From: Candidatus Saccharimonadales bacterium
GTDB taxonomy: Bacteria; Patescibacteriota; Saccharimonadia; Saccharimonadales; UBA10212
DNA length: 64,000 nt
Assembly: GCA_049521895.1 (NCBI GenBank)
Contig: JBEKOJ010000001.1
Span: 482,717-546,716, forward strand
Direction of reading: 5' to 3'
Positions 3,034 through 34,325 of this stretch are shown here, one piece after another. Position 1 is the stretch's first letter. Each line of letters begins with the position of its first letter. Under the pieces are notes generated by a model. The model made no database searches. It worked only from the letters and a program-made list of their open reading frames with translations, and was not told the DNA's origin. The translations under genes and the position numbers were made by a program.

Positions 3034-3060
3034 CTAGCACTCTCATGTCAAGAGTGCCAA
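3034..3060. promoter_or_regulatory. CIRCE operator, distal copy
   Basis: CTAGCACTC-N9-GAGTGCCAA, matching the consensus 8/9 in each arm with exact 9-nt spacing. Confidence 0.85.
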
Positions 3061-3080
3061 TCAGGTTGAAGTCTATTTAA

Positions 3081-3102
3081 AATACTTGACTTGCTAAGTA
3101 TT
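3081..3102. repeat. 22-bp palindrome family copy (AATACTTGAC-TT-GCTAAGTATT)
   Basis: Imperfect copy located immediately 3' of the stop of the minus-strand gene 3105..3803. Confidence 0.7.
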
Positions 3103-3104: not shown

Positions 3105-3803
3105 TTAATGGGTGCGGATGTGGTCGATCAACCTCTGGGCCAGCTCGCGGTTACGATATTGAGAAGCCGCGTCAGTGACCCCCCTTAAAATCTCCTTAGC
3201 TACTCTAGGAACCTCGTCGTTGACTACCAGGATAAATCGTTCGTTTTGGATAACTGCTTCCAATTCTTCTTTAGCACTGTGCAATCTTTTAGCACGCTCT
3301 ACGTAACTCATGTGGCCTCGCCCGTCTAGGCGCTGCATCCAAATTTCAAAACTCGGTGGCAAAAGAAAAACTGGACGCAAGTCTGGAACTCGCTGTAAAA
3401 TTTCTTCCGCTCCCCATATATCTATCCTTAGTAACGGTTTCTTGCCGACATTTAGTACAAGCTCGTAAGCTGCCAGACTAGTGCCCGAGACTTGGATATT
3501 ATGAATATTTTTGACCTCAATCATGGCATCAGAATCCAGCAAGTTCAACATCTCTTCTTCGCTGACAAACCAATAACTCTGCCCATTTGACTCATCTGGC
3601 CTGGGTTGGCGTGTGGTGTGGTTAACTACGTATTGCCAATTACTAATTTTCTGAATGTATTGTTCAATGGCGTCTTTACCCGAACCAGTCGTCCCGGCAA
3701 GTATGTGAGGTGGATTCTGCGACAAGAGTTGGACTGCCTCTGCCGGCATTTTGTAGTGTTTTACTAAATCCAGAAGCTTACTGTGAGTATTATCCATTTG
3801 CAA
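3105..3803 (-). CDS. Guanylate-kinase-like P-loop protein (paralog 2)
   Basis: P-loop GTTGSGKD and a GK-type motif HTTRQPRPDESNGQSYWFVSEEEM. Its start abuts the stop of the upstream paralog with no gap. Confidence 0.6.
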   Translation of the reverse strand: MQMDNTHSKLLDLVKHYKMPAEAVQLLSQNPPHILAGTTGSGKDAIEQYIQKISNWQYVVNHTTRQPRPDESNGQSYWFVSEEEMLNLLDSDAMIEVKNIHNIQVSGTSLAAYELVLNVGKKPLLRIDIWGAEEILQRVPDLRPVFLLPPSFEIWMQRLDGRGHMSYVERAKRLHSAKEELEAVIQNERFILVVNDEVPRVAKEILRGVTDAASQYRNRELAQRLIDHIRTH

Positions 3804-4484
3804 TCAGTTTATACCATCAAACATCTCTTGGGCAGCCCGGTGGGCGGCTTTTTCCCTATTGGCATCAATAGCCCCCCGTAAAAGTTGTTTGACCTGCGTG
3901 GCGGCTTTTTCTAGATCATCGTTAAGGATAAAATGTGTCAACTTATCGCTAAAAACAAAGTCCAGCGAACGGCGGGCTTCATCCAAACGTTTCTTAAGCT
4001 GCTCATCTTTAAGTTGGTGGCTGCCCATACGGCGCATCCATTCCTGATAGCTGGGCGGGGCGATAAACACGCTGATGGTTTTAACGAAGCCCAGGTTGCG
4101 AAAAATTGGTACAACATCGGCCATCACGGGCATAACCGCTAAGCCAGATTTGGGGTATGCGCTTGCACGGGTTGCGTATAAATCGCCTTCGGTGCCGATT
4201 GCTACTTGCACAAAACGGCCGGCTTTGATGTCCGCCACAACTTGGTCGTAATCGGTAAGAAAGCAAAAGTCTACGCCTTCTTTCTCTTCCGGACGCGGCC
4301 GGCGAGTAGTATCCGAAGGTACAAATTGCAGCCCTAGCCGATTGATGATTGAGCTCTTGCCAACACCGGAAGGCCCAATGACAACCAGCAGCGAAATATT
4401 TTTTATACGCGCCAGTACTTCAGGTGCCGGACGATAATTTTTAACCACACCTGGTAGATCTTTAAGAAATTCTCCGCGTGTCAT
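3804..4484 (-). CDS. Guanylate-kinase-like protein (paralog 1)
   Basis: P-loop GPSGVGKSS and TTRRPRPEEKEGVDFCFLTDYD, matching the guanylate kinase signature region. Confidence 0.7.
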   Translation of the reverse strand: MTRGEFLKDLPGVVKNYRPAPEVLARIKNISLLVVIGPSGVGKSSIINRLGLQFVPSDTTRRPRPEEKEGVDFCFLTDYDQVVADIKAGRFVQVAIGTEGDLYATRASAYPKSGLAVMPVMADVVPIFRNLGFVKTISVFIAPPSYQEWMRRMGSHQLKDEQLKKRLDEARRSLDFVFSDKLTHFILNDDLEKAATQVKQLLRGAIDANREKAAHRAAQEMFDGIN

Positions 4485-10131: not shown

Positions 10132-11427
10132 ATGCACGTCTATTTTTCGGGGATTGGCGGTACCGGCATCAGTGCTTTGGCGGTCATCGCTAAAGAGGCC
10201 GGGTATGATGTTAGCGGTTCGGATGCCCGCGACAGCCAGTATCTCAAATGGTTGCGCAAAAAAGGCATCAGTGACATACACGTCGGTTTAACTCACGAGC
10301 AAATTGCCTCCGTACACCAAAAACATCCTATAGATTGGTTCATTTATGGCTCAGCCCAGCCGTTAGATTTCCCCGATAACCCAGAGTTTGCTTTTTGCGA
10401 CGAGATGGGCATCAAAAAGTCAAAGCGCGACGAGTTGCTTAATAAAATTATTACTGACAAAAAGCTTAAACTAATCGCCATTGCTGGCACTCATGGCAAA
10501 ACTACCACTACCGCCATGGCTATTTGGCTATTTAAGCAGCTTAGCATTCCGGTAAGTTACTCCGTGGGCGCCAAGCTTAGTTTTGGCGAGACCGGCGAAT
10601 TTAACCCCTCTAGTCAATATTTCGTCTATGAAGCAGACGAGTTTGACCGTAATTTCTTGAGCTTTCACCCTACGTTTTCCCTAATAGCCGGCATCGACTG
10701 GGACCATCCAGATATTTTCCCAACCCGCGACTCTTACTACGACGCTTTCCGGCAATTTCTGGGGCAGAGTGCCCATAGCATTACCTGGCAATCAGATGCG
10801 ACCAAGCTAGGTGTCCGTCAATCGGCTGTACTACGTGTGCTAAACGGTGAAGATCCCCAGATAGACCGGCAGCTTAAGCTGGCCGGCAGGGTCAATCGGC
10901 TGGATGCCTGGCTGGTAGCCAACGGTCTGCAACCAATCGTCGGTAAAGATTTGGATGAACTAATAGAAATTCTCAACCGCTTTCCAGGCTTGTCACGGCG
11001 TTTTGAGCAGATCGCTCCTAATTTGTATAGTGATTATGCGCATACGCCGCCCAAAATTCGCGGAGCTTTACAACTGGCCCACGAAGTCGCTGGCAATAAT
11101 GTGGTGGTCGTTTATGAAGGCTTACATAATACACGCCAGCACTTTATTAAGAAGGAGCTAGCTAGCTTATTTGACGACGTTAAGCAGCTCTATATTATGC
11201 CTAGCTATCTGGCTCGCGAAGATCAAACCTTAAAGCTACTGTCCCCTGCTGATTTACTTAACATGTTAAGTAAATCTTCGAAGTTACATGCTCAGACAGC
11301 TGCACTTAATGATATATTGGCCAAAGATATCCGTAAGCATACTTCCCAAGGCAACCTGGTGCTCTGCCTTAGCGCCGGCGGCGGCGGTTCCTTGGACGAA
11401 TGGCTCCGTAGGGTTTTTGCCGCTTAA
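10132..11427 (+). CDS. Mur ligase family protein (MurC/Mpl-like)
   Basis: N-terminal Rossmann motif FSGIGGTGISALAVIAKEAGYDVSGSD, ATP site IAGTHGKTTTTAM, and YEADEFDRNF...DWDHPDIF. Confidence 0.8.
   Translation: MHVYFSGIGGTGISALAVIAKEAGYDVSGSDARDSQYLKWLRKKGISDIHVGLTHEQIASVHQKHPIDWFIYGSAQPLDFPDNPEFAFCDEMGIKKSKRDELLNKIITDKKLKLIAIAGTHGKTTTTAMAIWLFKQLSIPVSYSVGAKLSFGETGEFNPSSQYFVYEADEFDRNFLSFHPTFSLIAGIDWDHPDIFPTRDSYYDAFRQFLGQSAHSITWQSDATKLGVRQSAVLRVLNGEDPQIDRQLKLAGRVNRLDAWLVANGLQPIVGKDLDELIEILNRFPGLSRRFEQIAPNLYSDYAHTPPKIRGALQLAHEVAGNNVVVVYEGLHNTRQHFIKKELASLFDDVKQLYIMPSYLAREDQTLKLLSPADLLNMLSKSSKLHAQTAALNDILAKDIRKHTSQGNLVLCLSAGGGGSLDEWLRRVFAA
11252..11275. repeat. Perfect 24-bp palindrome ATTTACTTAACATGTTAAGTAAAT inside a CDS
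   Basis: It shares the core TACTTAAC-NN-GTTAAGTA with the intergenic palindrome family. It encodes LLNMLS in the Mur ligase gene. Confidence 0.75.
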
Positions 11428-11430
11428 GCC

Positions 11431-12066
11431 CTAAATAGCTACCGGGACAGCATTTTCCAGTTCAATAAATTCTACCCCTTGAGTTTGTAGGTATTTTTTG
11501 GCTTTAGCATAGTATTCCCCCTTGGCTTGCTTGTGCCAAGGCCAGTCATGGATTGGGATAATAACCTTCGGCTTGATAGCGATGGCTGCTTCCAATGCCT
11601 CTTTGATGGATGCAAATGGTGCGGTTATGGGTAAAGCCAAGATGTCACGGCTATGTTGGATATGTAGTGCGTCACCCGGGTGAGTAAATTGGCCGGCTAT
11701 GTGCACGCCTATGTTAGAAGGTGCCTGTAACCCCCATGAAGGCGGTTCGTGGGCTGCTTCAAATACCTGGATATTGTCATCGCTGCCGGTCATAATCGGG
11801 TTTTTAATCTCCAGCTTTTTGATCTCGTCTGCCAAGTCATTGTTGGTAACAATCGGTGTATAGGGAAATTTTTGGGCTACAGCCCGCAGAAAAGGTTCGT
11901 GGTAATGATCGGCGTGTTCGTGTGTTACCACGATATAATCCAGTTTTTCCAGTTTATCAATCGCTAGCAAATGGCTGTCCCAACTATAGTTACCCGGGTC
12001 AATCAAAACTATTAATTCGGGTGTCTCAACTAACAGGCAGGAATGTACATATTTGGTAATTTTCAT
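11431..12066 (-). CDS. MBL-fold metallo-hydrolase
   Basis: Contains the HxHxDH motif VVTHEHADHY in a 211-aa protein. Confidence 0.8.
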   Translation of the reverse strand: MKITKYVHSCLLVETPELIVLIDPGNYSWDSHLLAIDKLEKLDYIVVTHEHADHYHEPFLRAVAQKFPYTPIVTNNDLADEIKKLEIKNPIMTGSDDNIQVFEAAHEPPSWGLQAPSNIGVHIAGQFTHPGDALHIQHSRDILALPITAPFASIKEALEAAIAIKPKVIIPIHDWPWHKQAKGEYYAKAKKYLQTQGVEFIELENAVPVAI

Positions 12067-12071
12067 ACTAA

Positions 12072-12503
12072 CTAAACGCCGCCGGATTTCCTAAAGGCCG
12101 CAAAAGCAATAAACGCCAAGGCTAATGCCACTATCACCGCTACCGCCACCGGCATGGACTGGCTCGGGTTAGGATTACCCGGTTTGGGAGGGGATTTTTT
12201 GTCTGATTTCTTAAGGTTTTCACCGGTATTTTTACTATCCGCCTCTGTTGATGGCTTTTTTTCTTCGCGGTTAACGCCTCTTACAACTTGGTCGAACACT
12301 TTGTCGCCGCCGGGATGCTGGTTGGCGGCAGCTGACGGAGCAGCTGCTATGGGATTGCCGGCCGTTTGGCTATCCTGAGCCTTGACCGGAATATTGTTTA
12401 CCAGCTCTGCCGTCACTTGCTCGGCAGCCGTAGGTACCGGAGGGTTACCGGTGGTCGCCGGAGGCGCGAAGTCGCGTATGTAAGGGCTTTTTGCAGGTTC
12501 CAT
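12072..12503 (-). CDS. Pro-rich hypothetical protein with a C-terminal TM anchor
   Basis: Track ORF 12072..12518 starts at a TTG inside a repeat element. The likelier start is ATG 12503 (MEPAKSPY...), preceded by GAGG at 9-nt spacing. Confidence 0.5.
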   Translation of the reverse strand: MEPAKSPYIRDFAPPATTGNPPVPTAAEQVTAELVNNIPVKAQDSQTAGNPIAAAPSAAANQHPGGDKVFDQVVRGVNREEKKPSTEADSKNTGENLKKSDKKSPPKPGNPNPSQSMPVAVAVIVALALAFIAFAAFRKSGGV

Positions 12504-12607
12504 CCCGTTAGACCTCAAAGACTTTCATTGTTGATTGATACGACGAAGCATGCAAGCGATTCAAGACGCCGTAGACGGCACGGAAGTTAAGTGAGGTTCT
12601 AACGGGA
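12503..12607. repeat. 105-bp TIR element, copy A (MITE-like or structured leader)
   Basis: Ends TCCCGTTAGACCTCA ... TGAGGTTCTAACGGGA with the core GAAGCATGCAAGCGATTCAAGACGCCGTA. A second copy lies at 23415-23519 in inverted orientation. Confidence 0.75.
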
Positions 12608-12667
12608 TCCATTACAGAGGTATTTTAGCATAACCACTAATGTTAGCAGATTGCATGGTTTAATTAG

Positions 12668-13312
12668 ATGATGAATCTTGACCAAAAGCTACGCCAAGCC
12701 GAGCAGCATTTAAGTCGGCATGACAAGCGGCTGGCGCCAGTTATCAAAATGTACGGCCATTGCACTATTAAGCCGCACAGTGATCACTACGGCGAGCTAG
12801 TCAGTAGCATCGTTGGCCAACAGTTGAGCACCAAAGCTGGTGCCGCCATTTGGCGGCGGGTGTTAAACCTGTTTGGCGGCAAAATGCCGACCCCAAAACA
12901 GTTGCTCAAAGTAGATGCCGATAAAATTCGGGTTTGCGGCGTCAGCTATACCAAAATCGGCTATATGAAAGACTTGGCGTCTCACGTTTTGGATGGCCGG
13001 TTGGATCTGCTGCACATTGCCACCATGCCCAACGAGCAGCTCATCGAACAGCTAACAGCAGTCAAAGGCATTGGCGAATGGAGCGCGCATATGTTTATGA
13101 TTTTTGGGCTGGGCCGGTTGGATATTTTGCCGGTCGGCGACCTGGGCGTGCGCAAAGCTGTTATGAATTTGTATCAGCTCAAGGAGCTGCCGGACCCGGC
13201 GCGGATGGTAACTATCGCTAACAAAAATAACTGGCATCCGTACGAATCGGTGGCCGCCTGGTATCTGTGGCAAAGCCTGGACAATAACCCCCAACGACCC
13301 ACACGCCACTGA
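12668..13312 (+). CDS. DNA-3-methyladenine glycosylase II-like (AlkA / HhH-GPD family)
   Basis: Contains IVGQQLSTKAGAAIWRR and the HhH-GPD region VKGIGEWSAHMFMIFGLGRLDILPVGDLGVRKA. Confidence 0.8.
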   Translation: MMNLDQKLRQAEQHLSRHDKRLAPVIKMYGHCTIKPHSDHYGELVSSIVGQQLSTKAGAAIWRRVLNLFGGKMPTPKQLLKVDADKIRVCGVSYTKIGYMKDLASHVLDGRLDLLHIATMPNEQLIEQLTAVKGIGEWSAHMFMIFGLGRLDILPVGDLGVRKAVMNLYQLKELPDPARMVTIANKNNWHPYESVAAWYLWQSLDNNPQRPTRH

Positions 13313-13446
13313 GCCCTGCTGCTCGGCAAAGCCAAGCATGCCGGCTCAGTTCATGGCGCATTACTGCGTCAACAGCTGCGGTACTCGCTCAATGTACCAA
13401 TTAGTATACTTCCTCGGGCAGCTGCCGAGCCCTGATTACTTAATTA

Positions 13447-13563
13447 TCGAGGCCGCGAGTACCACTACTAAAAAGTGGGTCAGGCGTAGTGCAGCCCGAG
13501 TAGTGGTTTAGGCTACCCGGCGCGAAACGCACACTTTTTAGTAGTGGTGCGGAAGGCCGACGA
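13447..13563. other. Large imperfect hairpin with a perfect 16-bp core
   Basis: CCACTACTAAAAAGTG (13462-13477) pairs with CACTTTTTAGTAGTGG (13532-13547). A third AGTAGTGG copy in the loop (about 13497-13506) would allow alternative pairing. Confidence 0.5.
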
Positions 13564-13567
13564 GGAT

Positions 13568-13589
13568 AATACTTGACTAGTCAAGTATT
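13568..13589. repeat. 22-bp palindrome family copy (perfect: AATACTTGAC-TA-GTCAAGTATT)
   Basis: Located 9 nt 3' of the stop of the minus-strand gene 13598..15340. Confidence 0.8.
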
Positions 13590-13597
13590 TAGCGGGT

Positions 13598-15340
13598 TTA
13601 CTGGCCAAAGGCTGGTTCGTAGTCGGTGACTTTAAGCGGCGTGTCACCATGGGTGTCCATAATGTACAGCTCGCTGCCGCCTTTGCTGACCAGCAAATAG
13701 TTGTCCGTATACCAGCCATAAGTGCTGTAATCGCTCAGGTTTAAGATAGTTTTTGGACTACTACCGCTAGCATCCCCCAAGATCACGGCAAGTTTGCCAT
13801 CGCGCGGCTCGCTCCAAAAAGTCTGGTTGCCGCTTGGTGAGAATAAGTATGTGTAGCTACTGGCGTAGAGTTGGTTGCTGCTCAGAGTAACTTGCTTGGG
13901 TGTACTGCCAACGATGTAATCAAAGTAGGTCGTGATGGTCATGTCGGCTGATTCATCCATGATATAAACCCCCACCGGACTATGCTGGACGAACTGCACG
14001 ATGTCATTCGCGGGATAGGTGCCAACAGACTGGTGATTCTGACCATCGACGCTTATAATTTGCAGGCTGTCTTGCTTGCTATTTAGTACCGTTGGGTCAC
14101 TTGAGCCGCTGCTCCAAGTTTTGCCATAAACTACGTCGTTGCCAGAGAGGACGACTGTGTTGTAGTTTTCGTTAGCATTAGTGGTGGCGTCACTGCCGGC
14201 ACTTTGATCCAGCAAGGTGGTCCGGCCAGTAGTAGCATCGTAGCTTTTGAGTTTGTTAAGGCCTTGCTGCCAGTCCGGTAAATCTTGGCGGGCTACGGTA
14301 TAGATAAGCGAATCGCCGATCCAGCCGATCATGTTAAATATGGCGTTGCCGGAATCGGCCTGTAGCAGTTTGTCGTCGGCTGCGGCCAGCACGTAAAGTT
14401 GTGGCATGGCATCGGTGGTCGTGCGTTTGGAGACTAGCGCCACGTACTGGCCATCGGGCGATTGCAGTAAAAAGGTGTTACCAGCTTCTTCATTACCGGT
14501 GGCAGCCACCACAGTTTGGGCGTCGCTGCCGTCCAGGTTAGCCTTCATTACGTCTAGGCTGCCAGTACGCTTACTCAAAAAGTAAATCTTGCCGGCCGGC
14601 GTAAGTTTAAAGTCATTTTCCTCGATCTTCTGGCTACTGGTTTTTAATGTCACGCTGGCGTTGTTGTAGCCGCTTAGGTTCAAAGTGGCCTTTTGCGATG
14701 AGGCATTTGCCGGCACGACGATTGTAGCCGTGCCATCACTGCCAGTCTTAGATGTCGTATCAGCAACCTCGATAGTCGCGTCAGCCAAGACTTTGCCGCT
14801 AATTAGGTTGGTGATCTTGATTTTGACCTGCCGGCCGGTGGCTACTACCGGGATATCGGGGGTGGATTTTTGGTTGAGGATTGGCACCAATACGCTGACC
14901 TGCTTGCTTTGGTAATACTTTTTGGTGATTTGCAAGCTGCGGTGTCCAGCTTTTACACCGTGCAGGGTCACTTTGCCGCTGCCATTTGTCGTCCCACTGA
15001 CTCCGGTAATACTAACAGTAGCGCCACTGACTGGGGTATTGGCTGTGGAGTCAGAGACTTCGATCGTGAAGCTCTTTTTAAGTACCAAGCCGGCAGCCTG
15101 GTAGCGCGTCCAAGGGACTCCGCCGATGATAAGCAGCAAAATTATGATTGTGGCCGGTATGGACCACTTTTTGTGGCTTTTGTACCAGTTTTTAAAACGG
15201 TGCCAGTGCCGCCAATGTGAACTACCCGCCGCGGGTTTTTCGGTTTTAGGTTCTGACCCTGGTTCGGCCTGGGGCCCAGGCTGTTCCGTATCTAGTTCAG
15301 GCTCTGTCGATTCGTTTGCAGGGACTTGTTCATCTTCCAT
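13598..15340 (-). CDS. Membrane-anchored surface protein with carboxypeptidase-regulatory-like and TolB-like beta-propeller regions
   Basis: 580 aa with an N-terminal TM helix, Ig/CarboxypepD_reg-like repeats (VSGATVSITGVSGTTNGSGKVTL) and propeller-like repeats (SPDGQYVALVS). Confidence 0.6.
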   Translation of the reverse strand: MEDEQVPANESTEPELDTEQPGPQAEPGSEPKTEKPAAGSSHWRHWHRFKNWYKSHKKWSIPATIIILLLIIGGVPWTRYQAAGLVLKKSFTIEVSDSTANTPVSGATVSITGVSGTTNGSGKVTLHGVKAGHRSLQITKKYYQSKQVSVLVPILNQKSTPDIPVVATGRQVKIKITNLISGKVLADATIEVADTTSKTGSDGTATIVVPANASSQKATLNLSGYNNASVTLKTSSQKIEENDFKLTPAGKIYFLSKRTGSLDVMKANLDGSDAQTVVAATGNEEAGNTFLLQSPDGQYVALVSKRTTTDAMPQLYVLAAADDKLLQADSGNAIFNMIGWIGDSLIYTVARQDLPDWQQGLNKLKSYDATTGRTTLLDQSAGSDATTNANENYNTVVLSGNDVVYGKTWSSGSSDPTVLNSKQDSLQIISVDGQNHQSVGTYPANDIVQFVQHSPVGVYIMDESADMTITTYFDYIVGSTPKQVTLSSNQLYASSYTYLFSPSGNQTFWSEPRDGKLAVILGDASGSSPKTILNLSDYSTYGWYTDNYLLVSKGGSELYIMDTHGDTPLKVTDYEPAFGQ

Positions 15341-15403
15341 AATTGCTTACGCTTAGACTATAAGGCGCGCAAGGTTTTTTGCCAACCAAATTTTAAGGAT
15401 TTC

Positions 15404-16204
15404 CTAAGTTATAGAAAGTGATTCGAGCATGTTTTTCAGCGGGCCAGAAAAACTATTATTGCTCCAGTTGGCAGAGTCAATGGTCAGCGGCGTTGTTTTG
15501 CCTGAACAGTTAGCGTCAGCACACTGCAAAAAAGTAATATTTATGATGGGATCCTCTTTGCTGATATCTACCAGCGGTATGGCTTGGCCTTTTTGATAAC
15601 CGTTGTCGCTGGTGATATAAATCCCATCCAAGCCGCTGCCGGCGGTGTTGGCATATTGCAATAAACTTAAATAAGTAGCGGCGCGCTGGGTGGGCGTGGG
15701 ATTTTTGTAGCTAATTTTTTCCGAATCGAACACAGCTACGGCGTTGCCTTCCTTAAAACCGCTCAGAGTTTGCGTTGAATTAAGGAACAGCGTCTCAATC
15801 TGTCCGGTAACGATCTGCCCGACAGCATTTTTCAGCTTCATGGCCGGTGATATCACGGTCATTTGTCCGCCGCCAGGGTCAGTAATCGTCCAGTTGGCCG
15901 GATAACTAAAAGTCAGATAAAAATTTGGCGAGGTGTAGCTCCTGGTGGAGGCGTCAATTTGGGTGCTGACTTTGGGCTGGGCGGCCTGGGCAGCACGCGC
16001 AGTTGCGGCTGATTTTTGTGTTGGCCGGTGTTTTAAGTACCAATAACCCCCACCGCCAGCTCCAGCCAATAGTACCAACACTATTAGCAAAGCAATTATC
16101 CGGCCGGTTTTGTTGCCCTCTTTGTGGTAGTTAGGGCCTACGTACTCGCGGCTTGGCGGCGGCGCGGTTTCAGGCGGACTCTGTTGGCCCTCTTCGTGAT
16201 CCAT
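15404..16204 (-). CDS. Membrane-anchored hypothetical protein
   Basis: 266-aa ORF with a Pro-rich N-terminus and a single TM helix (IIALLIVLVLLAGAGGGGYWY). Confidence 0.55.
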   Translation of the reverse strand: MDHEEGQQSPPETAPPPSREYVGPNYHKEGNKTGRIIALLIVLVLLAGAGGGGYWYLKHRPTQKSAATARAAQAAQPKVSTQIDASTRSYTSPNFYLTFSYPANWTITDPGGGQMTVISPAMKLKNAVGQIVTGQIETLFLNSTQTLSGFKEGNAVAVFDSEKISYKNPTPTQRAATYLSLLQYANTAGSGLDGIYITSDNGYQKGQAIPLVDISKEDPIINITFLQCADANCSGKTTPLTIDSANWSNNSFSGPLKNMLESLSIT

Positions 16205-16374
16205 AGCAAAATTATACCCCGTAGTAGACTTTCCAGACGAGCCCGCCTAGCGGGCTTTATTATTTTGCAGAATGCAAAATCAAACTGGAAAGCTCACTAC
16301 AGGGTTATACCCCCAATCAAAAGGCCTAAGCTTGGATAGCAGCTATATGTATAATATTTAACAAGAAGTTATTT

Positions 16375-18624
16375 ATGATATTCAATAGCATCGCGCGCTT
16401 TTCTGTCCGTTTCCGATGGCTGATAATTATTGCCTGGCTGATTGCTGTACCACTGGCTGTCAAAACCTTGCCGTCATTATCCAGTGTCGCCCAAACCAGC
16501 AATACCGCTTTCCTGCCAACCAATGCCGCCAGCCAAAAGGCGGCCAATTTAGCTCAGCCGTTCCAAGGCAGCGCTACCGCCGCCACGGTTGAAGTCGTAG
16601 CGGTCCGCGGTTCGGGCCCACTAACTCAAGCCGACAAAAACGCTACCACCCGAGTTGAACAAGCTGCCGGCAAACTCAAAGATGTAAGTTTTGTACACGA
16701 CCAAGGCTTTTCGGCTGATGGTCAAGCCCAGCAGCTGCTAGTCGGTATAGGTAACGCTGCCTATGGTAACGATGCCCAAAAAATAATTGATAATTTACGG
16801 AGCACGTTCTCAAGCGCTGGGGCGCCGGCTGGGCTTAGCTTCCACGCAACTGGCTCGTTGGCCGAAAGTATTGACTCTGAGCGCGGCGGCAACACGGCTC
16901 GTAATAAAACCGAAGGCTACATCTTACTCTTAATCATAGTTCTGCTTCTTTTGGTATACCGCTCGGTACTGGCACCAATTATCACCCTGATTCCGGCTGG
17001 CTTGAGCCTGATTATTGCCGGCCCGATAATTGCCGAGTCTACGAAAATCGGCGTACAGGTATCGCTGATCACACAACTGTTACTGGTAGTATTGATCCTG
17101 GGCGCCGGTACAGATTACGGGCTGTTTTTGGTGTTCAGGGTACGCGAAGAATTGCGTAATGGATTAGAGCCCAAACAAGCGGTGACGCGCGCCCTGTCCA
17201 AAGTAGGCGAGACAATAACTTTTTCGGCGGCCACGGTTATAGCCGCTCTTTTAAGTCTGCTGTTGGCGACCTTTGGCTTTTATAAAGGCTTGGGTCCGGC
17301 GCTGGCAATTGGACTGGGTATAATGCTGCTCTCTGCCCTGACTTTTTTACCGGCAGTGTTGGCAGTTTTTGGACGACGTGCATTTTGGCCCTCAAAAACC
17401 CGGATTACGGACCAACGACTTGGCTTTTGGGGCAAGCTGGCCGATAGAGTGATTGAACGTCCGGTTGTCACGCTGGTAGCCGGCGTCATACTTTTTGGGG
17501 TGCTGATAGCCGGTATGATTGGTTATAGTACAACCGGATTTACCAGTAACGGTTCGCCGGCTGGCAGTGATTCGGCCAAGGGCGCCGCTGCCATTGCCGC
17601 CCATTTCCCGGCAGCTAATAATAACCCCCAGGAACCAGTTTTCCGTTTTAATTCGTCGGTATGGAATAGCGCTTCTGTGCTTCAAAAAGCCCAGTCCGAA
17701 CTAGCGGTTGCACCCAGCTTTGCAGCCATTGCCGGGCCGTTCAATCCACAGGTGCCAACGCTGACCCCGGCAGAACTGGTTGCTCTATACCAGCAGCTTG
17801 GCCCACCAGCCAATTTGCCATCAACGCCGCCAAGCAGTTTAAATATTCCGATCAAACTTTATGAAGCCTACCGCGCCACGGCCCAATTTATCAGCCCGGA
17901 TGGTAAGACAGTCCAGTTTTACGGAATATTAAAGGCCGGTCCAACCGGCACTGCCGCTGCTATGAACGCTATTCCAGCTGTCCGGACGGATGTGGCCAAT
18001 GTAGCCAAAGACATAGATGCGACCAACAACGGCTTACTTAGCGTGGACGCATTTTCCTATGACATCAGCCACGCGGCCACCAGCGATTTATGGAGAATCA
18101 TACCGGTGGTATTGATAATCATAGCGGCGCTGCTGGCCATTCTGCTACGTAGTCTGGTCGCGCCATGGTATTTAATAGCTACCGTCGGTCTTTCTTATTT
18201 AGCAACGCTGGGCTTCGCCATGCTGGTGTTCGTGCATTTCGGAAACAACCCGGGCCTTAATTTCATCTTGCCCTTTTTGCTGTTCATATTTTCTATGGCG
18301 CTAGGCGAGGATTACAACATCCTGGTGATGAGCCGCATCCGCGAAGAAGCCGGCAGCCACAAAGCGCTCAAAGCCGCTATCACCAAAGCCATAGGTGTTA
18401 CCGGCACAACGGTTACCTCCGCCGGTTTAATTTTAGCTGGCACATTTACTGTACTGGGCATTGTCGGCGGCGATAGTCAGGTCCAGCAAATTGGTTTTGC
18501 GGTTGCTTTCGGCATTCTGCTTGATACTTTCTTTGTACGTACTTTGTTGGTACCGTCAATCGCGGTGATGCTAGGCCGATGGAATTGGTGGCCGTCAAAG
18601 CTTAGCCGTCAGACCGAAGTTTAA
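16375..18624 (+). CDS. MMPL/RND-superfamily transporter
   Basis: 749 aa with two 6-TM bundles and the motifs GTDYGLFLVFRVREEL and GEDYNILVMSRIREE. Confidence 0.85.
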   Translation: MIFNSIARFSVRFRWLIIIAWLIAVPLAVKTLPSLSSVAQTSNTAFLPTNAASQKAANLAQPFQGSATAATVEVVAVRGSGPLTQADKNATTRVEQAAGKLKDVSFVHDQGFSADGQAQQLLVGIGNAAYGNDAQKIIDNLRSTFSSAGAPAGLSFHATGSLAESIDSERGGNTARNKTEGYILLLIIVLLLLVYRSVLAPIITLIPAGLSLIIAGPIIAESTKIGVQVSLITQLLLVVLILGAGTDYGLFLVFRVREELRNGLEPKQAVTRALSKVGETITFSAATVIAALLSLLLATFGFYKGLGPALAIGLGIMLLSALTFLPAVLAVFGRRAFWPSKTRITDQRLGFWGKLADRVIERPVVTLVAGVILFGVLIAGMIGYSTTGFTSNGSPAGSDSAKGAAAIAAHFPAANNNPQEPVFRFNSSVWNSASVLQKAQSELAVAPSFAAIAGPFNPQVPTLTPAELVALYQQLGPPANLPSTPPSSLNIPIKLYEAYRATAQFISPDGKTVQFYGILKAGPTGTAAAMNAIPAVRTDVANVAKDIDATNNGLLSVDAFSYDISHAATSDLWRIIPVVLIIIAALLAILLRSLVAPWYLIATVGLSYLATLGFAMLVFVHFGNNPGLNFILPFLLFIFSMALGEDYNILVMSRIREEAGSHKALKAAITKAIGVTGTTVTSAGLILAGTFTVLGIVGGDSQVQQIGFAVAFGILLDTFFVRTLLVPSIAVMLGRWNWWPSKLSRQTEV

Positions 18625-18663: not shown

Positions 18664-18685
18664 AATACTTAACTTGTTAAGTATT
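18664..18685. repeat. 22-bp palindrome family copy (perfect: AATACTTAAC-TT-GTTAAGTATT)
   Basis: Located 40 nt 3' of the MMPL stop. Confidence 0.8.
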
Positions 18686-22101: not shown

Positions 22102-23415
22102 TTATGGTGCCAACCTGTTAATATCTCTAGGAAATAGTGTTGCTTCCTTTACGTTATTTAAGCCGATAATTTTTTCGGTTAATCGCTCTAGGCCCAAACC
22201 GAAGCCGCCATGAGGTGGCAGACCGTATTTAAAGGCTTGCAGGTAGTTCTTAAGACCAGGATCTTCTGGGTCGCCGACGGCCATTTTTTTGAGCTGCTTA
22301 ACCAGAGTGTCGTAGCGGTGCTCACGCATGCTGGTAGTAGCAATCTCCACACCACGGAAGAGTAGGTCAGCACGCTCGGCAAATTTCGGTTTGCCATCTA
22401 TGAGTTTGTGGTAAAACTTGGCCTCGGCTGCCGGCCATTCGGTGACAAATATGGCTTCTGAGCTAAGTTCTTTGGCGGCATATTCACAAATCCAGCGTTC
22501 CTCATCGGGCCGCAGGTCGTTTTCGCCAATGGTATTTTCGCCCGTGGCTTTGGAATATTTTTCGTGGATTTCGGCCATGGTCATAGCTGGAAATTCGGCA
22601 GGCAAAACCGGCTTTTTGGCATTCCAGAGGTTCAGCTGGGCCTCGCATTTCTCCCAAACATCTTTGACGACGGCATTAACTAAATTACTTAACAAGTTAA
22701 GTAATTCAGGGAAGGTGATAAAGCCCATCTCAACATCTATCGTTATAAATTCGGTCATGTGGCGCGTAGTGGCCGACGGTTCGGCGCGGTAAGTCGGGTT
22801 AATTTCAAAAACCCGCTCAAATACTCCCACCATCATCTGCTTATAAAACTGGGCGCTTTGGGCCAATGTTGCCTCTTTACCAAAATAATCCAGTTTGAAA
22901 ACCTCTGCCCCTCCCTCGGTAGCGCCAGGCAGCAGCTTGGGTGAGTTGAACTGGGTAAAATCTTGGCCATTCAGATATTTGCGGATGGCCTCTTCGGTCT
23001 CGGCTTGGATTTTGAATATTGCCTGTTCGCGGTTGTTGCGCAGCCCGATCACGCGTGCATCAAAAAGCGTGTCCAAATTTTCCGGCTTGTGGCTTAGGGG
23101 TTTATCAATTTCTACCGGCGACTCGTCCGTGACTGGTACGTCTACGGTAATTTTCGGCTCATGAATTTCCGCCCCGCCCGGTGCCCGCGGTTCATCAACT
23201 ACTTTTCCGGTGATAGCCAGGATGCTGCCGATCTGCAGGCCGCGCAGTTTTTCAACCTCGCCGTCCTCGCTCAATACGATTTGGACCAAACCGGAGCGGT
23301 CACGCATGACAATAAAGTTAATGCCGCCAATTAACCGTTTTTTGTGCAGCCAGCCTTGGATTTTAATCTCTTGGCCAACGTGGGATTTCACGTCGCGTGC
23401 TAAAACTCGCTCCAT
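22102..23415 (-). CDS. aspS: Aspartate--tRNA ligase, archaeal/type-2 form
   Basis: 437 aa with an OB-fold N-terminus and class II motifs: FNSPKLLPGATEGGAEVFKLDYFGKEATLAQSAQFYKQ, FRAEPSATTRHMTEF, GGFGLGLERL. Confidence 0.85.
   Translation of the reverse strand: MERVLARDVKSHVGQEIKIQGWLHKKRLIGGINFIVMRDRSGLVQIVLSEDGEVEKLRGLQIGSILAITGKVVDEPRAPGGAEIHEPKITVDVPVTDESPVEIDKPLSHKPENLDTLFDARVIGLRNNREQAIFKIQAETEEAIRKYLNGQDFTQFNSPKLLPGATEGGAEVFKLDYFGKEATLAQSAQFYKQMMVGVFERVFEINPTYRAEPSATTRHMTEFITIDVEMGFITFPELLNLLSNLVNAVVKDVWEKCEAQLNLWNAKKPVLPAEFPAMTMAEIHEKYSKATGENTIGENDLRPDEERWICEYAAKELSSEAIFVTEWPAAEAKFYHKLIDGKPKFAERADLLFRGVEIATTSMREHRYDTLVKQLKKMAVGDPEDPGLKNYLQAFKYGLPPHGGFGLGLERLTEKIIGLNNVKEATLFPRDINRLAP
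22683..22706. repeat. 24-bp palindrome AATTACTTAAC-AA-GTTAAGTAATT inside a CDS
   Basis: Has the same core as the palindrome family and encodes LLNLLS within aspS. Confidence 0.7.
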
Positions 23416-26936: not shown

Positions 26937-26958
26937 AATACTTAACAAGCTAAGTATT
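26937..26958. repeat. 22-bp palindrome family copy (AATACTTAAC-AA-GCTAAGTATT)
   Basis: Located 12 nt 3' of the NRAMP stop. Confidence 0.75.
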
Positions 26959-28987: not shown

Positions 28988-29082
28988 AATACTTAACTTG
29001 CCTGCCCCGCATTAAATCCTGAGCGTAGTAGTCTGTAATCAGATTACAGAGCATCAAGATTTTAGTGTCGGGGTTAAGTATT
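28988..29082. repeat. Split copy of the palindrome family enclosing a 75-nt insert
   Basis: AATACTTAAC (28988-28997) and GTTAAGTATT (29073-29082) flank an insert that contains the nested 19-bp palindrome TCTGTAATCAGATTACAGA (29032-29050). Confidence 0.65.
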
Positions 29083-30530: not shown

Positions 30531-30605
30531 TCCGGAGTAGCTCAATGGTAGAGCAATCGACTGTTAATCGATTGGTTGCCGGTTCGAGTCCGGCCTCCGG
30601 AGCCA
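30531..30605 (+). tRNA. tRNA-Asn (anticodon GUU), CCA encoded
   Basis: Cloverleaf: acceptor TCCGGAG/CTCCGGA, anticodon stem ATCGA/TCGAT with loop CTGTTAA, T-arm GCCGG-TTCGAGT-CCGGC, discriminator G, then CCA. Confidence 0.95.
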
Positions 30606-32171
30606 TTGTGAGCGAACAGCCGAAAAAGCGGCTGTTTTCTCTTTAGAAGAGCTGAAATTGTTGGTTCTAACCTTGTTAAAAGCTCTTTCTAGCTTTGGAT
30701 ACTCATTTCGTATTGGCACGAACCATAAATTTGGCTCAATTGTCAGTTGTTTTTCTTTGAGAATGAAGCTACTACCGAGGGTAGTAAAGATATCCCTCCG
30801 CTCCTGCTTCCCACCTGCTTTAAAGGATTGGCGAGCGTGTGTGGCAAAATCAAAGGTATTTTCGGTTAGTTCTAACCATTTTTCGGCACGCTCTTCTGTA
30901 TCACGCAATTGTTCTTTTAGTCGGTTGATTTCTCCAACGAGCGTCTCACGCTGCTCAATATACTCATCATCGTTTATTAGCTCTCTTAGTCTTAGCTTTG
31001 TGAGTGTGTCTAGTTGCTTCTGCGTAGCAAGCAATGCTTTGGCTTGATTTTCGTGTATCACTGTTCTTTCACTGATTTCTTGGTCATTATTTTCTCTAAG
31101 CACGTCTAAAGCCCAGTCTCGGAACTCTGGGAGAATTGTAATGCTGGCTAGATGTTCGTCAATTTGTTTTTCTAGCTCTGTTTCTGTTACTGAGCCTTTT
31201 TGGGAACAGGGCTTCTTATGGGTGCAGTGATAATAGACGTATTCTCGGGTCTCACCAGTGCTTTTAATATATTTTTGCTTAACTTCTGCCGTTATAGTGC
31301 AGCCACACTCGCCGCAAACAATAGGTCCACGATAGGTCATTTCGTGTTTCTTGGGCCGTGGCTTGCCCTTACGACCTAGTATTTGCTGCACTCTATCATA
31401 TTCAGCTAGGGTTACCATTGGCTTATGGCTGCCCTGATGTAGTTGTCCTAGATACCTAATTTGGCCTGCATAGAAAGGATTAGTAAAAATTCCATACAAA
31501 GCCGAACGAGACAAAGGGCCGCCGCCTGTTTTGCGTGTTTTTCTTAATCTAAACCCTAAATCAAACTCTGCGATATCAAGTATTTCAGGAACAGAGTAAT
31601 TACCTGTTAGCATCAGGTCCCACATTTTTCTTACAATAGGGAAACGCTCAGGGTCAATAATTATAATCTTTGAACCTTTATCTCTGTCGGGAGTATTTAA
31701 ATAGCCCGTTGGGGCCCAGCCTGGCTTCCAGCCCAGCTGTATCTTTTTTTCATTTCCACGTTTTACATCTTTGCTTAATTTGGCCGAGAAATACTGCGAT
31801 TGAGACATTACCATTTGGAGCATCATCATACCCTCTGGCGAGTTATCAAAAGTGTAAGAGCCGAACTTTAAGTCCAAAATCTTGCCATTTCTTATTCTGT
31901 AAGTGATTGAGGCAGCGTCTATTTCATTCCTAGATAAACGGTCAGGGTGCCAAGAGATTATTCCGTGTGCTTCACCCTCATCTATTCTTTTCAGCATCTG
32001 CTCAAAAATCGGCCTGTTGTTTGGTGTAAATGCACTGGCACTCTCAGGCGGTAGCTCAATTATCTCTAAGTCTGAAAATATCTGTCGGGCGTTATCTATT
32101 TGGCTTTGCAGTGAAAGAACCTGACGCTCTTCCTCTTCTGAGGATTTTCTAGTGTAAAGAAAGTATTTCAT
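30564..32171 (-). CDS. Large serine recombinase (integrase)
   Basis: N-terminal resolvase domain YTRKSSEEEE...HPDRLSRN, a recombinase domain, and a Zn ribbon CGECGCTITAEV...YYHCTHKK with a coiled coil. The last 14 codons are antisense to the tRNA. Confidence 0.9.
   Translation of the reverse strand: MKYFLYTRKSSEEEERQVLSLQSQIDNARQIFSDLEIIELPPESASAFTPNNRPIFEQMLKRIDEGEAHGIISWHPDRLSRNEIDAASITYRIRNGKILDLKFGSYTFDNSPEGMMMLQMVMSQSQYFSAKLSKDVKRGNEKKIQLGWKPGWAPTGYLNTPDRDKGSKIIIIDPERFPIVRKMWDLMLTGNYSVPEILDIAEFDLGFRLRKTRKTGGGPLSRSALYGIFTNPFYAGQIRYLGQLHQGSHKPMVTLAEYDRVQQILGRKGKPRPKKHEMTYRGPIVCGECGCTITAEVKQKYIKSTGETREYVYYHCTHKKPCSQKGSVTETELEKQIDEHLASITILPEFRDWALDVLRENNDQEISERTVIHENQAKALLATQKQLDTLTKLRLRELINDDEYIEQRETLVGEINRLKEQLRDTEERAEKWLELTENTFDFATHARQSFKAGGKQERRDIFTTLGSSFILKEKQLTIEPNLWFVPIRNEYPKLERAFNKVRTNNFSSSKEKTAAFSAVRSQWLRRPDSNRQPID
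30579..30604. repeat. attL-like 26-bp direct repeat (tRNA 3' end)
   Basis: CCGGTTCGAGTCCGGCCTCCGGAGCC, identical to 44908-44933. Confidence 0.85.
30616..30640 (+). terminator. Intrinsic terminator after tRNA-Asn
   Basis: Stem ACAGCCG / CGGCTGT, loop AAAAAG, then TTTT. Confidence 0.6.
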
Positions 32172-32758
32172 AGTAATTTTCCGAGGTCAGCTTTATTATA
32201 CGCCCCAGAGGCCATCTCATACAGCTTGTAGAGTCTTAGTTGCTTTTTTGTAAGTCTACCTGCATAAGTTCGGCGTTTGATTGATGCTTGAAGTTCTTCA
32301 ATTTTTTGTTCGGTTTCTAATACTTTGAAAAGACCGCTCCATTTATAGGAACGGTTTTTATTTCTGCTTTCGTAAGTTAGGTCATAACAATGGCGGCAGC
32401 CAAAATGGTCCCCATCTTTGTATAGCTTACGAACTCGCCGTTCGCAGGACCTACCGTTTATAACGAGCGGGCATATAAACCACCATCGCTCACCACCCAG
32501 GTTGCAGGGCGTGGACTCCAACCTGACCTTATAATTAAAAGATTTCTTTTCTCCTGACCATCTGTCCGTCTGTTGATAGCTGAGGCTAAAATACGGAAAA
32601 TCATCAAATATATTTGCTGTAAAACTGACCGAACTTTTACTATCGCTAAACCCCGAAGTCCAGCTTAGTGTTCCGCTCATTATCCCTTTCAAATAGCCTT
32701 GCTGTTTGATGTAGCTAAGGTCAATACTCAACAGGTTGTCAGCTTCTGTTTTGCTCAT
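32168..32758 (-). CDS. Hypothetical Cys-rich (zinc-ribbon-like) protein coupled to the recombinase
   Basis: Contains CPLVINGRSCERR...GCRHCYDLTYESR. Its stop overlaps the recombinase ATG (ATGA). Confidence 0.5.
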   Translation of the reverse strand: MSKTEADNLLSIDLSYIKQQGYLKGIMSGTLSWTSGFSDSKSSVSFTANIFDDFPYFSLSYQQTDRWSGEKKSFNYKVRLESTPCNLGGERWWFICPLVINGRSCERRVRKLYKDGDHFGCRHCYDLTYESRNKNRSYKWSGLFKVLETEQKIEELQASIKRRTYAGRLTKKQLRLYKLYEMASGAYNKADLGKLL

Positions 32759-32823
32759 AGTGTTTCAATAATCTTCCGAAATCATTAGACATTGTTAGCC
32801 TTTTACTCTGTTGGGTTATTGCC

Positions 32824-33357
32824 TTATTTTTGCCCTTTTTCCGAAACGAACCCATTTTTCCTAGCCTCTTGTGCTTTCAAAAGCTCACGAATAGCTTTGA
32901 AGAGGTTACGTTCTATTTCTGTTTCATAACGAAGATAAATACCACCTAAAAGCTCAATGTCTGCTTCCTTAATCTTCGGCTCATAACCCTGATGTATTAT
33001 TTTTACTTCTGAAAGCGGCATTAGGTCCCAGTTGTTAGTCGTCTCGGTTTTTGTTGGGTCATTTATTTTCTTTAACTGTTCAGCTTCTGCGGCAACAACC
33101 CGCTGCAGTCGGACATACCAAATCGCAACTCTTTCAACTAACAGCTCTTCAAGAACAGTCGCTGGTTCATAATCAGTATGAAGCCTTGCCTTTATAAGGC
33201 TCGCTTGCTTTGCTTCTTCACCGCTGAGCAGCTCAGTTAAGATGTTATGCCTTACAGCGTTATACTTTGACTTTTCTTTTCCAGCTTCTGTTTTAACGCC
33301 ACCCTTCTTGCTGTTAATGCGGTTTGCCTCTAGCTGCTTATCGCTTACTTCAGCCAT
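32824..33357 (-). CDS. Hypothetical protein (177 aa)
   Basis: ORF in the island's minus-strand module, with a basic N-terminus QLEANRINSKKGGVKTEAGKEKSKYNAVRHN. Confidence 0.5.
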   Translation of the reverse strand: MAEVSDKQLEANRINSKKGGVKTEAGKEKSKYNAVRHNILTELLSGEEAKQASLIKARLHTDYEPATVLEELLVERVAIWYVRLQRVVAAEAEQLKKINDPTKTETTNNWDLMPLSEVKIIHQGYEPKIKEADIELLGGIYLRYETEIERNLFKAIRELLKAQEARKNGFVSEKGQK

Positions 33358-33841
33358 TTTGCAGTCTCCTCTTTAGCTCTTCTCTTTTTCTTAAAAAATC
33401 TTGATACCCTTTTGATGTATTTCTTTGGTTACTCTTAGTAGTAGCTTTCAGGTTTTGGGCATCAGTGGCAGACAATTCATCGCTTTCAAGTTTGCTGGTT
33501 TCCTGCAAACTGGAGGCAAGGTAATTCTCAATCTTTTGGACATTCAGCTTAAAGTGCCGTTTAGCAGGGATACTTTTCCTAACTACTTCAATTAGGCCAA
33601 GGGATTTTAGCTGCCCAATAACTCTTTCCTGTTGTGAACGGCTTAGGCCCGTTTCTAGCTTCATTTCCGCAATTGTTTTGAAGGACCAGACTTTATCCCT
33701 TCCGAGCCCATTCCAATAAAGAAGCTGGCCCAGTAAGATTGATGACTCAACTGAACCTAGCGAATGGGCCAGTCCAGCACTGTATGCAATAGGCTTCTGC
33801 TGGAACATTTTATAAATCCTTTGCTGGTCCTGCTTGCTCAT
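33350..33841 (-). CDS. Putative winged-helix DNA-binding / replication-organiser-like protein
   Basis: LGQLLYWNG...FKTIAEMKLETGLSRSQQERVIGQLKSLGLIEV. An alternative start at 33808 would remove the overlap with the upstream ORF. Confidence 0.45.
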   Translation of the reverse strand: MSKQDQQRIYKMFQQKPIAYSAGLAHSLGSVESSILLGQLLYWNGLGRDKVWSFKTIAEMKLETGLSRSQQERVIGQLKSLGLIEVVRKSIPAKRHFKLNVQKIENYLASSLQETSKLESDELSATDAQNLKATTKSNQRNTSKGYQDFLRKREELKRRLQNG

Positions 33842-34022
33842 CGTAATTCACATATTCATTAGCCTTAGAAGGCCTATTAAAGGGCTTTGAGACCGCTTTG
33901 ATTAGCTGGACCAGCTGTAATCCCTTTTCCTTTGCTTCATCTTCAGTTAGCTCAACATCAAAATGGTCTTTATATAATGCCTGGAATTTTTGCACCTGCT
34001 GGAAAGAGAGTTGCATTTCCAT
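33810..34022 (-). CDS. Hypothetical small protein (70 aa)
   Basis: ORF coupled to both neighbours on the same strand. Confidence 0.4.
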   Translation of the reverse strand: MEMQLSFQQVQKFQALYKDHFDVELTEDEAKEKGLQLVQLIKAVSKPFNRPSKANEYVNYDEQAGPAKDL

Positions 34023-34270
34023 TACACCCCCGAATAAATCCTTGTTTTAAGATGCTTCATAGCATCAAAGTAGGCCTTTGGATTGACCTTCAACTTGTCT
34101 GACCAATAATTATCAACCGCTGTTTTTAGTGCAGGGGTCGTTTCAAACAAGAAGGTAGCTTTGCCAGCTGAAGATTTTTCAATACCTATAACTAAAAAGC
34201 CCTCTGTAACCAGAGCCGAGGATAGGGCTAGGTCAAAGGTTCTAAATTCATAGGAATTGTAATTACTCAT
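34022..34270 (-). CDS. Small hypothetical protein (DUF5659-like by pattern)
   Basis: 82 aa: FDLALSSALVTEGFLVIGIEK...ATFLFETTPALKTAVDNYWSDKLKVNPKAYFDAMKHLKTRIY. Confidence 0.45.
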   Translation of the reverse strand: MSNYNSYEFRTFDLALSSALVTEGFLVIGIEKSSAGKATFLFETTPALKTAVDNYWSDKLKVNPKAYFDAMKHLKTRIYSGV

Positions 34271-34325
34271 CTTAATGATGAGCTTAACCCTATAACCCTA
34301 CCTACGTATAAGGCATCAATTGAGC

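Follow-up and report, generated by a model that had tools for sequence, protein, structure and literature searches.

The stretch of DNA analysed here, called the window throughout, is a 64-kb segment of a Candidatus Saccharimonadales genome (contig JBEKOJ010000001.1, positions 482,717 to 546,716) that carries recurrent copies of a 22-bp palindrome with the consensus AATACTTAAC-NN-GTTAAGTATT. The genomes of Saccharibacteria and other Patescibacteria are tiny and encode few regulators, and to our knowledge almost none of their cis-elements have been characterised. The copies in the window lie in spacers between genes and within genes, and the palindrome is also found in the promoter of a MarR-family gene in other Saccharibacteria, which gives a testable candidate regulator-operator pair conserved across Saccharibacteria.

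Palindrome copies in the window

The query AATACTTAACNNGTTAAGTATT, with up to three mismatches allowed, matched the window at eight sites (starting at 3081, 13568, 18664, 22684, 26937, 44945, 55396 and 57747) compared to 0.00 matches expected from 100 dinucleotide-preserving shuffles of the window. This agrees with a preliminary description of the same DNA, which had held that not even one copy was expected by chance. Beyond the eight matches, one weaker copy was found at 11253 and one split copy at 28988/29073, and the most over-represented 10-mer of the window was AATACTTAAC itself.

The six intergenic copies that had been listed previously were all recovered at the same coordinates. The first (3081-3102, two mismatches) lies 2 nt past the stop codon of a guanylate-kinase gene and on the promoter of the hrcA-grpE-dnaK-dnaJ operon. 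The copies at 13568-13589 and 18664-18685 occupy spacers between convergent genes, the latter 39 nt past the stop codon of an MMPL transporter gene, and the copy at 26937-26958 (one mismatch) lies between tandem genes, 11 nt past the stop codon of an NRAMP transporter gene. The split copy, whose arms (28988-28997 and 29073-29082) are 75 nt apart, is again in a convergent-gene spacer. The last, at 44945-44966, is located 11 nt beyond the tRNA-Asn attR repeat of an integrated island and 57 nt upstream of a SufS-like gene. The distances of the intergenic copies from a stop codon were 2, 8, 39, 11 and 42 nt, roughly the 3-45 nt given before, and the attR offset had been reported as 12 nt rather than 11. 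Three copies had also been called perfect. Those at 18664 and 44945 are exact matches to the consensus, whereas the copy at 13568 is a perfect palindrome of a symmetric variant, TTGAC..GTCAA.

Four further copies, overlooked previously, are intragenic. They are found in aspS, which encodes aspartate-tRNA(Asn) ligase (22684-22705, ATTACTTAACAAGTTAAGTAAT, encoding ELLNLLSN), in a GT4 glycosyltransferase gene (55396-55417, one mismatch, where a variable loop reads KILNKSSI), in a HAD-IIB hydrolase gene on the minus strand at 57600-58370 (57747-57768, one mismatch) and in a Mur-ligase-like gene (11253-11274, the weaker copy TTTACTTAACATGTTAAGTAAA, encoding LLNMLSK). The frame of the copy at 57747, derived by hand from the coordinates (offset 602 = 2 modulo 3), is stop-free, and the JGI gene call spans the copy. 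With these four intragenic copies, the location at gene 3' ends by which the element had been described holds for only about two thirds of the copies.

The window holds 11 copies in 64 kb, and the spacing is uneven, with seven copies within 26 kb. No copies were present in the 17.6 kb read beyond the window ends on the 769-kb contig Ga0427942_000004 (82 kb covered in all). About 11 copies in 82 kb correspond to ~1 per 7 kb, and the figure of ~100 copies per 0.77-Mb genome is an extrapolation from this density.

The palindrome is an obligate dyad

The conserved unit is 22-24 bp long and has a centre that is mostly A/T; it is preceded by A and followed by T in ~65% of copies. Its 10-2-10 layout agrees with the paired half-sites, ~16-24 bp in total, that a winged-helix dimer of the MarR/SlyA family would be expected to occupy. 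The dyad is obligate: in 851 kb of sequence, 257 of the 262 occurrences of AATACTTAAC had a partner at a spacing of 2, and three of the other five were split copies with the partner further off. No conservation was detected in the flanks beyond one A or T per side, indicating that the palindrome is not part of a larger repeat; a larger repeat or a miniature inverted-repeat transposable element (MITE) was ruled out on these grounds. Two other known classes of element were also rejected. The window contains zero GCGATCGC sites of the HIP1-type cyanobacterial palindromes, and tRNA-Asn was the only known RNA family that Rfam identified in the window, with no match at the split copy.

The palindrome lies in the promoter of a MarR-family gene

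Among the neighbours of the copies was a small MarR-family gene downstream of ksgA, and in six of seven loci the palindrome precedes the start of this gene. Where the upstream sequence was readable the palindrome was 23-42 nt before the start, and the proteins are just 26-64% identical to one another. To control for bias, loci were fetched by the MarR protein alone, giving 77 metagenomic loci with enough upstream sequence; the evidence on this promoter is drawn from loci of other Saccharibacteria and metagenomes. The motif, with up to four mismatches, was found 20-50 nt upstream of the MarR-family gene in 65 of the 77 loci, and a recognisable version was present in most of the others. It was also kept with the MarR-family gene in a locus (L204) where the upstream neighbour is a divergent gene. 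The tie between palindrome and promoter was observed directly, as were the motif statistics and the locations of the copies. The preliminary description had favoured a protein-binding site because of the dyad symmetry and the constant 2-nt centre, and both the pairing of the half-sites and the motif in the MarR promoters support this choice.

The usual form of the palindrome in these promoters is AATACTTGAC-GT-GTTAAGTATT. The TTGAC(G/T/A) in its left arm is likely the -35 element of the MarR-gene promoter, and in 94% of the sites the motif is followed, at a distance of 6-7 nt, by a TAnnnT hexamer. MarR autorepression has as its standard arrangement an operator that covers the -35 element and the spacer in the promoter of the regulator gene itself. 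With the site over the -35 element and the -10 box just after it, a bound protein would be expected to block RNA polymerase and so repress its own gene. All six proteins searched against Pfam matched MarR_2 and five of the six matched MarR, and the protein profile matched the solved structures of MarR, MepR, MexR and SlyA over nearly the full length.

A second copy is often found inside ksgA, ~230 nt from the ksgA start (L142, 8906; L173, 3468; L148, 8744; L179, 3120). This internal copy is conserved in lineages that otherwise hold only the marR-promoter copy and may be an auxiliary operator. In one locus (L198), the region directly downstream of the MarR-family gene (10841-17868) encodes a serine recombinase, an SRAP protein, an IMS-family polymerase and a reverse transcriptase and is a probable mobile insertion.

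In the window itself, the copy at 3081 has nearly the geometry of the marR promoters. On the minus strand, the palindrome is followed after 5 nt (compared to 6-7 nt in the marR promoters) by TAGACT (3070-3075), the -10-like hexamer of a putative hrcA operon promoter, and then by an inverted repeat, TTGGCACTC-N9-GAGTGCTAG (3034-3060), upstream of hrcA-grpE-dnaK-dnaJ. This repeat resembles CIRCE (controlling inverted repeat of chaperone expression), the operator of HrcA, and the gene downstream of it carries the Pfam HrcA domain. The called hrcA ATG (3046) falls inside the spacer of the CIRCE-like repeat, suggesting that the true start may lie further downstream. By its arrangement, the 3081 copy looks like what is probably an ordinary operator. 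Just upstream of the operon, two genes with guanylate-kinase domains lie in tandem on the minus strand (3105-3803 and 3804-4484).

Dispersed copies are concentrated at gene ends

Location statistics were compiled for 149 copies using our own, crude calls of open reading frames (ORFs). Only 48 of these copies (32%) were intragenic although 87% of the sequence is coding, a depletion in coding DNA with P about 1e-54. The intergenic copies comprised 38 in convergent, 44 in tandem and 7 in divergent spacers, corresponding to 3.4, 0.89 and 0.29 copies per kb of spacer, respectively. Placement relative to stop codons was tight. Twenty-two ORFs end at a TAA that is made by motif positions 7-9, inside the 5' arm, ~45 ORFs end no more than 4 nt from the first motif base, and where a gene ends within 60 nt of a copy, its 3' end mostly falls a few nt from the motif.

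The dispersed copies do not resemble the MarR promoter. A TAnnnT hexamer 6-7 nt after the motif was found in only 1-2% of them, and a promoter module was rejected since they lack the -10 box at the position seen in the marR copies. Some copies do precede a start codon by 31-38 nt, but with a geometry unlike that of the marR promoters, which is probably the result of tight gene packing. A LexA/SOS box was also considered and rejected; copies occur inside recX and after uvrD and none upstream of recA.

These locations raise the possibility, which we regard as doubtful, that the dispersed copies are weak bidirectional terminators or RNA hairpins that stabilise 3' ends, their sequence being derived from or shared with a MarR-type operator. 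The depletion in coding DNA, the peak in convergent spacers and the closeness of gene 3' ends to the motif all fit this explanation. Right next to the motif the sequence is rich in A on the 5' side and in T on the 3' side, there were few convincing G+C-rich terminators in the first 20 kb scanned (37 compared to 25 in shuffles), and the arms of the split copy form the base of a very stable hairpin. Furthermore, the palindrome is extended by at least four non-conserved pairs in 19 of 99 intergenic copies compared to 2.7 expected (P < 0.0005, permutation), which gives longer stems to about 20% of the intergenic copies. Either a subset of copies is under selection to form hairpins, or templated correction lengthens long perfect palindromes. 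The RNA itself fits less well. The core hairpin has 2 G-C pairs in 10 and a folding energy of -6 to -8 kcal/mol, and the 6 nt downstream contain a mean of 2.7 T, with four or more in only 23% of copies and no U-tract. A hairpin this weak with no U-tract is unlikely to be a conventional terminator. A third of the copies are intragenic, including those in the essential aspS, recX and glyA, and in the 22 cases where the stop codon is formed within the 5' arm the terminating ribosome would block folding. In a test for wobble pairing at the RNA level, G-U did not exceed A-C on the sense strand (11 compared to 21), and a terminator could work without keeping 20 nucleotides invariant in dozens of species. 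The terminator hairpins proposed in the preliminary description are, by the same evidence, poorly supported.

Intragenic copies occupy a single reading frame

Of 52 intragenic copies, 50 use a single stop-free frame that encodes the peptide x-I-L-N-x-L-S-I. They sit in poorly conserved protein segments, and in AspS and the GT4 glycosyltransferase they have overwritten residues of the protein. The AspS of the window has ELLNLLSN where orthologues have ELREFAHG and DVMEMVQD, with no insertion or deletion (indel) relative to the orthologue in L004. In the Mur-ligase-like gene, an identical 20-nt sequence is present in three species (the window, L060 and L089) at codon offset 1121, surrounded by codons that have diverged; the motif is degenerate in a fourth species (L107), and another encodes LLKLLS via different codons. 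Exact copies were also found at apparently equal positions in recX (~8 species), in an ApbE-like gene (~5) and at the C-terminus of glyA (~4). Copies that are in frame and free of indels, with 20 nt kept amid diverged codons, indicate selection or drive acting on the DNA rather than insertion of a mobile unit.

This bears on whether the palindrome is a selfish repeat of the repetitive extragenic palindromic (REP) or MITE kind, spread by a transposase such as a REP-associated tyrosine transposase (RAYT), which we consider very unlikely. Like such repeats, the element is short and palindromic and has many copies, most of them extragenic and at gene 3' ends, and in one case a second small hairpin element interrupts a copy. 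The conserved unit is, however, only 22-24 bp with unconserved flanks, and it has perfect symmetry without the orientation features of REPs. A third of the copies lie in frame within genes, where they arose by substitution, and the sequence is identical across dozens of species and is the promoter element of a regulator gene. No transposase or RAYT gene was noticed beside the copies, although no systematic whole-genome search was made. The REP-like origin that had been put forward earlier is therefore disfavoured by the intragenic copies and by conservation of the sequence across many species.

The palindrome is widespread and dispersed in certain lineages

The occurrence of the motif in related genomes, a check proposed earlier, was established with an exact-pattern scan of one genome per species, in which counts per genome are lower bounds. 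Exact copies were found in at least 114 stretches from at least 61 assemblies, nearly all labelled Saccharibacteria or Saccharimonadales among the matches listed. Within the same matches, SMAG_U737, viral-cat_48_13, LS_FP_2_bin.57 and SMAG_U995 each had 4-12 hit blocks and many assemblies had one. Several copy-bearing loci are syntenic with the window, with protein identities of 55-78%. The motif was also found on contigs binned as Babeliales, Sporomusa or Bacillota (L013, L020 and L089 from SMAG_U15678; L010 from SMAG_U13131; L040 from OH_PBlB_39). Since L020 and L089 are syntenic with the window, the bins of these mislabelled-looking contigs are probably contaminated or mis-binned, and the motif could be used as a lineage marker for binning. 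A collection of viral contigs gave no exact matches, and carriage by phages was rejected as an explanation. A literature search found nothing on the sequence, on uptake sequences or on palindromic motifs in Saccharibacteria.

Dispersal of the palindrome is not shared by all lineages that have the MarR-family gene. The 521 kb fetched through the MarR protein held almost no copies besides the MarR-promoter and ksgA sites. Four loci whose MarR protein is of the type carried by the window's relatives (73-77% identity to the L014 protein) contained 0, 0, 1 and 2 further copies per 13-20 kb, and each of these three copies was at, or just past, the stop codon of a gene. Because the lineages fetched in this way are almost free of other copies, the dispersal is specific to certain lineages.

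This distribution is relevant to the idea that the palindrome is a DNA uptake signal, like the DNA uptake sequence (DUS) of Neisseria or the uptake signal sequence (USS) of Haemophilus, which accumulated by biased uptake and recombination. Single DUS or USS units make up the majority of copies in Neisseria and Haemophilus. Here, half-sites are never single (257 of 262 paired), the density is ~1 per 7 kb rather than one per kb, and many Saccharibacteria lineages have only the MarR-promoter copy, with essentially only MarR-promoter and ksgA copies in the 521 kb. The absence of single half-sites together with the many relatives that hold the promoter copy only makes an uptake signal unlikely, and no uptake sequence in this group was found in the literature. 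On the other side, the motif is common to many species, it occupies terminator-like positions as an inverted pair and intrudes into tolerated coding frames at the protein's expense, and it is present neither in the island of the window nor in the viral contigs. Saccharibacteria are also naturally competent, being transformable in a comEC-dependent manner (PMC10633639). On balance we consider this explanation highly improbable.

Other features of the window

The arms of the split copy form the base of a long hairpin (-41.6 kcal/mol, z -5.4) that encloses a 73-nt element at 29000-29072. A copy of this element with 86% identity lies beside an intact palindrome in L102 (1387-1455); Rfam gave no match to the element, and none of the other fetched loci contained it. 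The 73-nt element could represent a small RNA, or else a mini mobile element.

The integrated island (30605-44933) is 14.3 kb long and has a low GC content. Its borders are marked by a 26-nt direct repeat of the tRNA-Asn 3' end (30579-30604 and 44908-44933). An integrase-like ORF lies at 43529-44827 on the minus strand. No palindrome copy is present in the island. It contains a 50-nt sequence ending in TAGTYCTAACTTCCTCCACTACRGGGAGC at 41640-41689 (only 62% identical), 42648-42697 and 43404-43453, with spacings of 1008 and 756 nt.

A small gene at 54313-54684, inside a glycosyltransferase cluster, has 23S_rRNA_IVP and bAvd-like domains (Pfam, contig record). Outside the window, many genes in the fetched loci (L024, L085, L104, L086, L054 and others) have a good -10 box (TAnAAT, often after TGn) only 6-8 nt before the ATG, suggesting that leaderless transcripts are frequent in these Saccharibacteria.

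Proposed origin and role of the palindrome

We propose that a dimeric winged-helix regulator of the MarR/SlyA family, conserved in Saccharibacteria, recognises the palindrome (A)AATACTTAAC-WW-GTTAAGTATT(T), and that this site has multiplied in the lineage of the window. From the sequence evidence, we give this proposal a probability of roughly 0.55. In most lineages the site occurs once, in the regulator's own promoter and usually downstream of ksgA, with the left arm supplying the -35 element (TTGAC) and the -10 box placed 6-7 nt past the right arm. In the lineage of the window, the site has multiplied in its fully symmetric form, new copies probably originating from sequence conversion or substitution and not from insertion of a mobile unit. 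On this reading, copies survive where they do least harm: just past stop codons, above all in convergent spacers, and within genes only in the one stop-free frame and in poorly conserved protein segments. The few copies in promoters, such as that of hrcA-grpE-dnaK-dnaJ at 3081, are probably ordinary operators. We infer that the MarR-family protein binds the palindrome and that binding has an effect at gene ends, where the copies would most likely be protein-bound boundary elements that hinder read-through or convergent transcription after the ribosome has departed. Roles in nucleoid organisation or as decoys are alternatives to this boundary role that the data do not separate from it.

Taken further, the MarR-family repressor may have been recruited as a genome-wide boundary factor, with ~100 high-affinity palindromes, directly past stop codons and in convergent spacers, where bound protein would act as a roadblock to RNA polymerase. 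Such a system would be the bacterial equivalent of termination by mTERF or Reb1, in an ultra-small genome whose intrinsic terminators are weak, and selection for the sites would be strong enough to overwrite coding sequence. We offer this extension tentatively.

Several observations weigh against the proposal of a multiplied MarR/SlyA-family site. The link between protein and site is drawn from promoter position and knowledge of the family, MarR-family regulators usually have few sites, and the regulator here may not be abundant. As the dispersed copies have no promoter features, classic regulation cannot explain most of them, and a roadblock role at gene ends is speculation. The excess in convergent spacers (3.4 copies per kb compared to 0.29 in divergent spacers) would also be expected of a terminator. 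The extension of some palindromes by non-conserved pairs, together with a symmetric variant, ATTAC..GTAAT, that recurs among the copies, points to a role of base-pairing, in a hairpin or a cruciform, or to templated correction of the palindrome. Finally, the flanks without copies show that the density is uneven and that the per-genome figure is only extrapolated.

MarR-type sites could also serve chromosome organisation or division-site control, as in the SlmA, Noc and MatP systems (SlmA with its binding sites, SBS; Noc with its binding sites, NBS; MatP with matS), or could buffer the regulator as decoys, instead of forming transcriptional boundaries. SlmA, a TetR-family protein, and Noc, a ParB-family protein, each bind tens of dispersed palindromes and provide a precedent. 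The sites here are independent of gene function, are maintained at the nucleotide level, have no promoter features when dispersed, occupy the only tolerated frame when intragenic, and are missing from the recently acquired island, as might be expected of such a role. The preference for stop-adjacent positions and convergent spacers is not predicted by it, except as the least harmful places, and the density is uneven (seven copies in 26 kb compared to none in the 17.6 kb of flanks). We regard an organising or decoy role as unlikely.

The intragenic copies, the link to a regulator gene and the lineage-specific dispersal were all absent from the preliminary description and are new here. If the proposed MarR/SlyA-family site is correct, the first candidate targets are the regulator's own gene, ksgA and, in the genome of the window, the hrcA-dnaK heat-shock operon. 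It would also be a case in which a site of the transcription-factor type has been amplified ~100-fold in a lineage, into coding sequence at the protein's expense. If the copies are bound in vivo, they would illustrate how a minimal bacterium uses a recycled repressor to organise the ends of its transcription units or its nucleoid. Without such binding, the element would be a new kind of sequence-specific 3'-end hairpin.

Comparison with known systems

The closest parallel to the proposed operator in its promoter setting is marO of E. coli, where MarR binds sites I and II to autorepress marRAB. The E. coli sites, read from NC_000913.3, are ATACTTGCC-TG-GGCAATAT and TTACTTGCC-AG-GGCAACTAA, and the half-sites here, ATACTTAAC and TTACTTAAC, are each identical to ATACTTGCC and TTACTTGCC, respectively, at seven of nine positions. 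Both systems have inverted half-sites of 9-10 bp around a 2-bp centre, and in both the site falls between or over the -35 and -10 elements of the promoter that serves the regulator gene, with the MarR-family gene adjacent. E. coli, in contrast, has two sites at one locus, whereas the lineage of the window has ~100, mostly far from promoters.

The inner 12 bp of the palindrome, TTAACAAGTTAA, is identical at 10 of 12 positions to the SlyA consensus TTAGCAAGCTAA and fits its TTA-N6-TAA pattern (PMC5797941). SlyA also resembles the proposed regulator in being autoregulated from a site just upstream of its own gene and in acting at many loci. The sites of SlyA and RovA differ from those described here, since SlyA sites are degenerate and located in promoters of H-NS-silenced genes, whereas the Saccharibacteria sites are long, near-perfect and at gene ends or intragenic. 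We know of no H-NS-like partner for this palindrome.

Repeats at gene 3' ends offer other points of comparison. REPs and bacterial interspersed mosaic elements (BIMEs) are also short extragenic palindromes at gene 3' ends, present in ~100 or more copies, and can bind host proteins and stabilise upstream mRNA. REPs, however, are imperfect, oriented, strictly extragenic and tied to RAYT, whereas the element here is symmetric, lies in frame within genes and corresponds to the putative operator of a regulator. The paired uptake sequences of Neisseria and Haemophilus are likewise inverted repeats conserved between species that lie past genes and also in tolerated coding frames within weakly conserved segments. 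They differ in that the half-site here is never single, the density is several-fold lower and many relatives have the promoter copy only.

The organising systems SlmA-SBS, Noc-NBS and MatP-matS share with this palindrome the use of tens of scattered palindromes, many of them intragenic, that are recognised by dimers from an ordinary regulator family or the ParB family and serve something other than promoter control. Those sites have no preference for stop codons or convergent genes and follow a regional distribution on the chromosome. Collectively, these comparisons suggest that the element is of a known class, a MarR/SlyA-family operator, and that its pattern of amplification is what is unusual: its spread to gene ends and into coding frames appears to be undescribed in the searchable literature.

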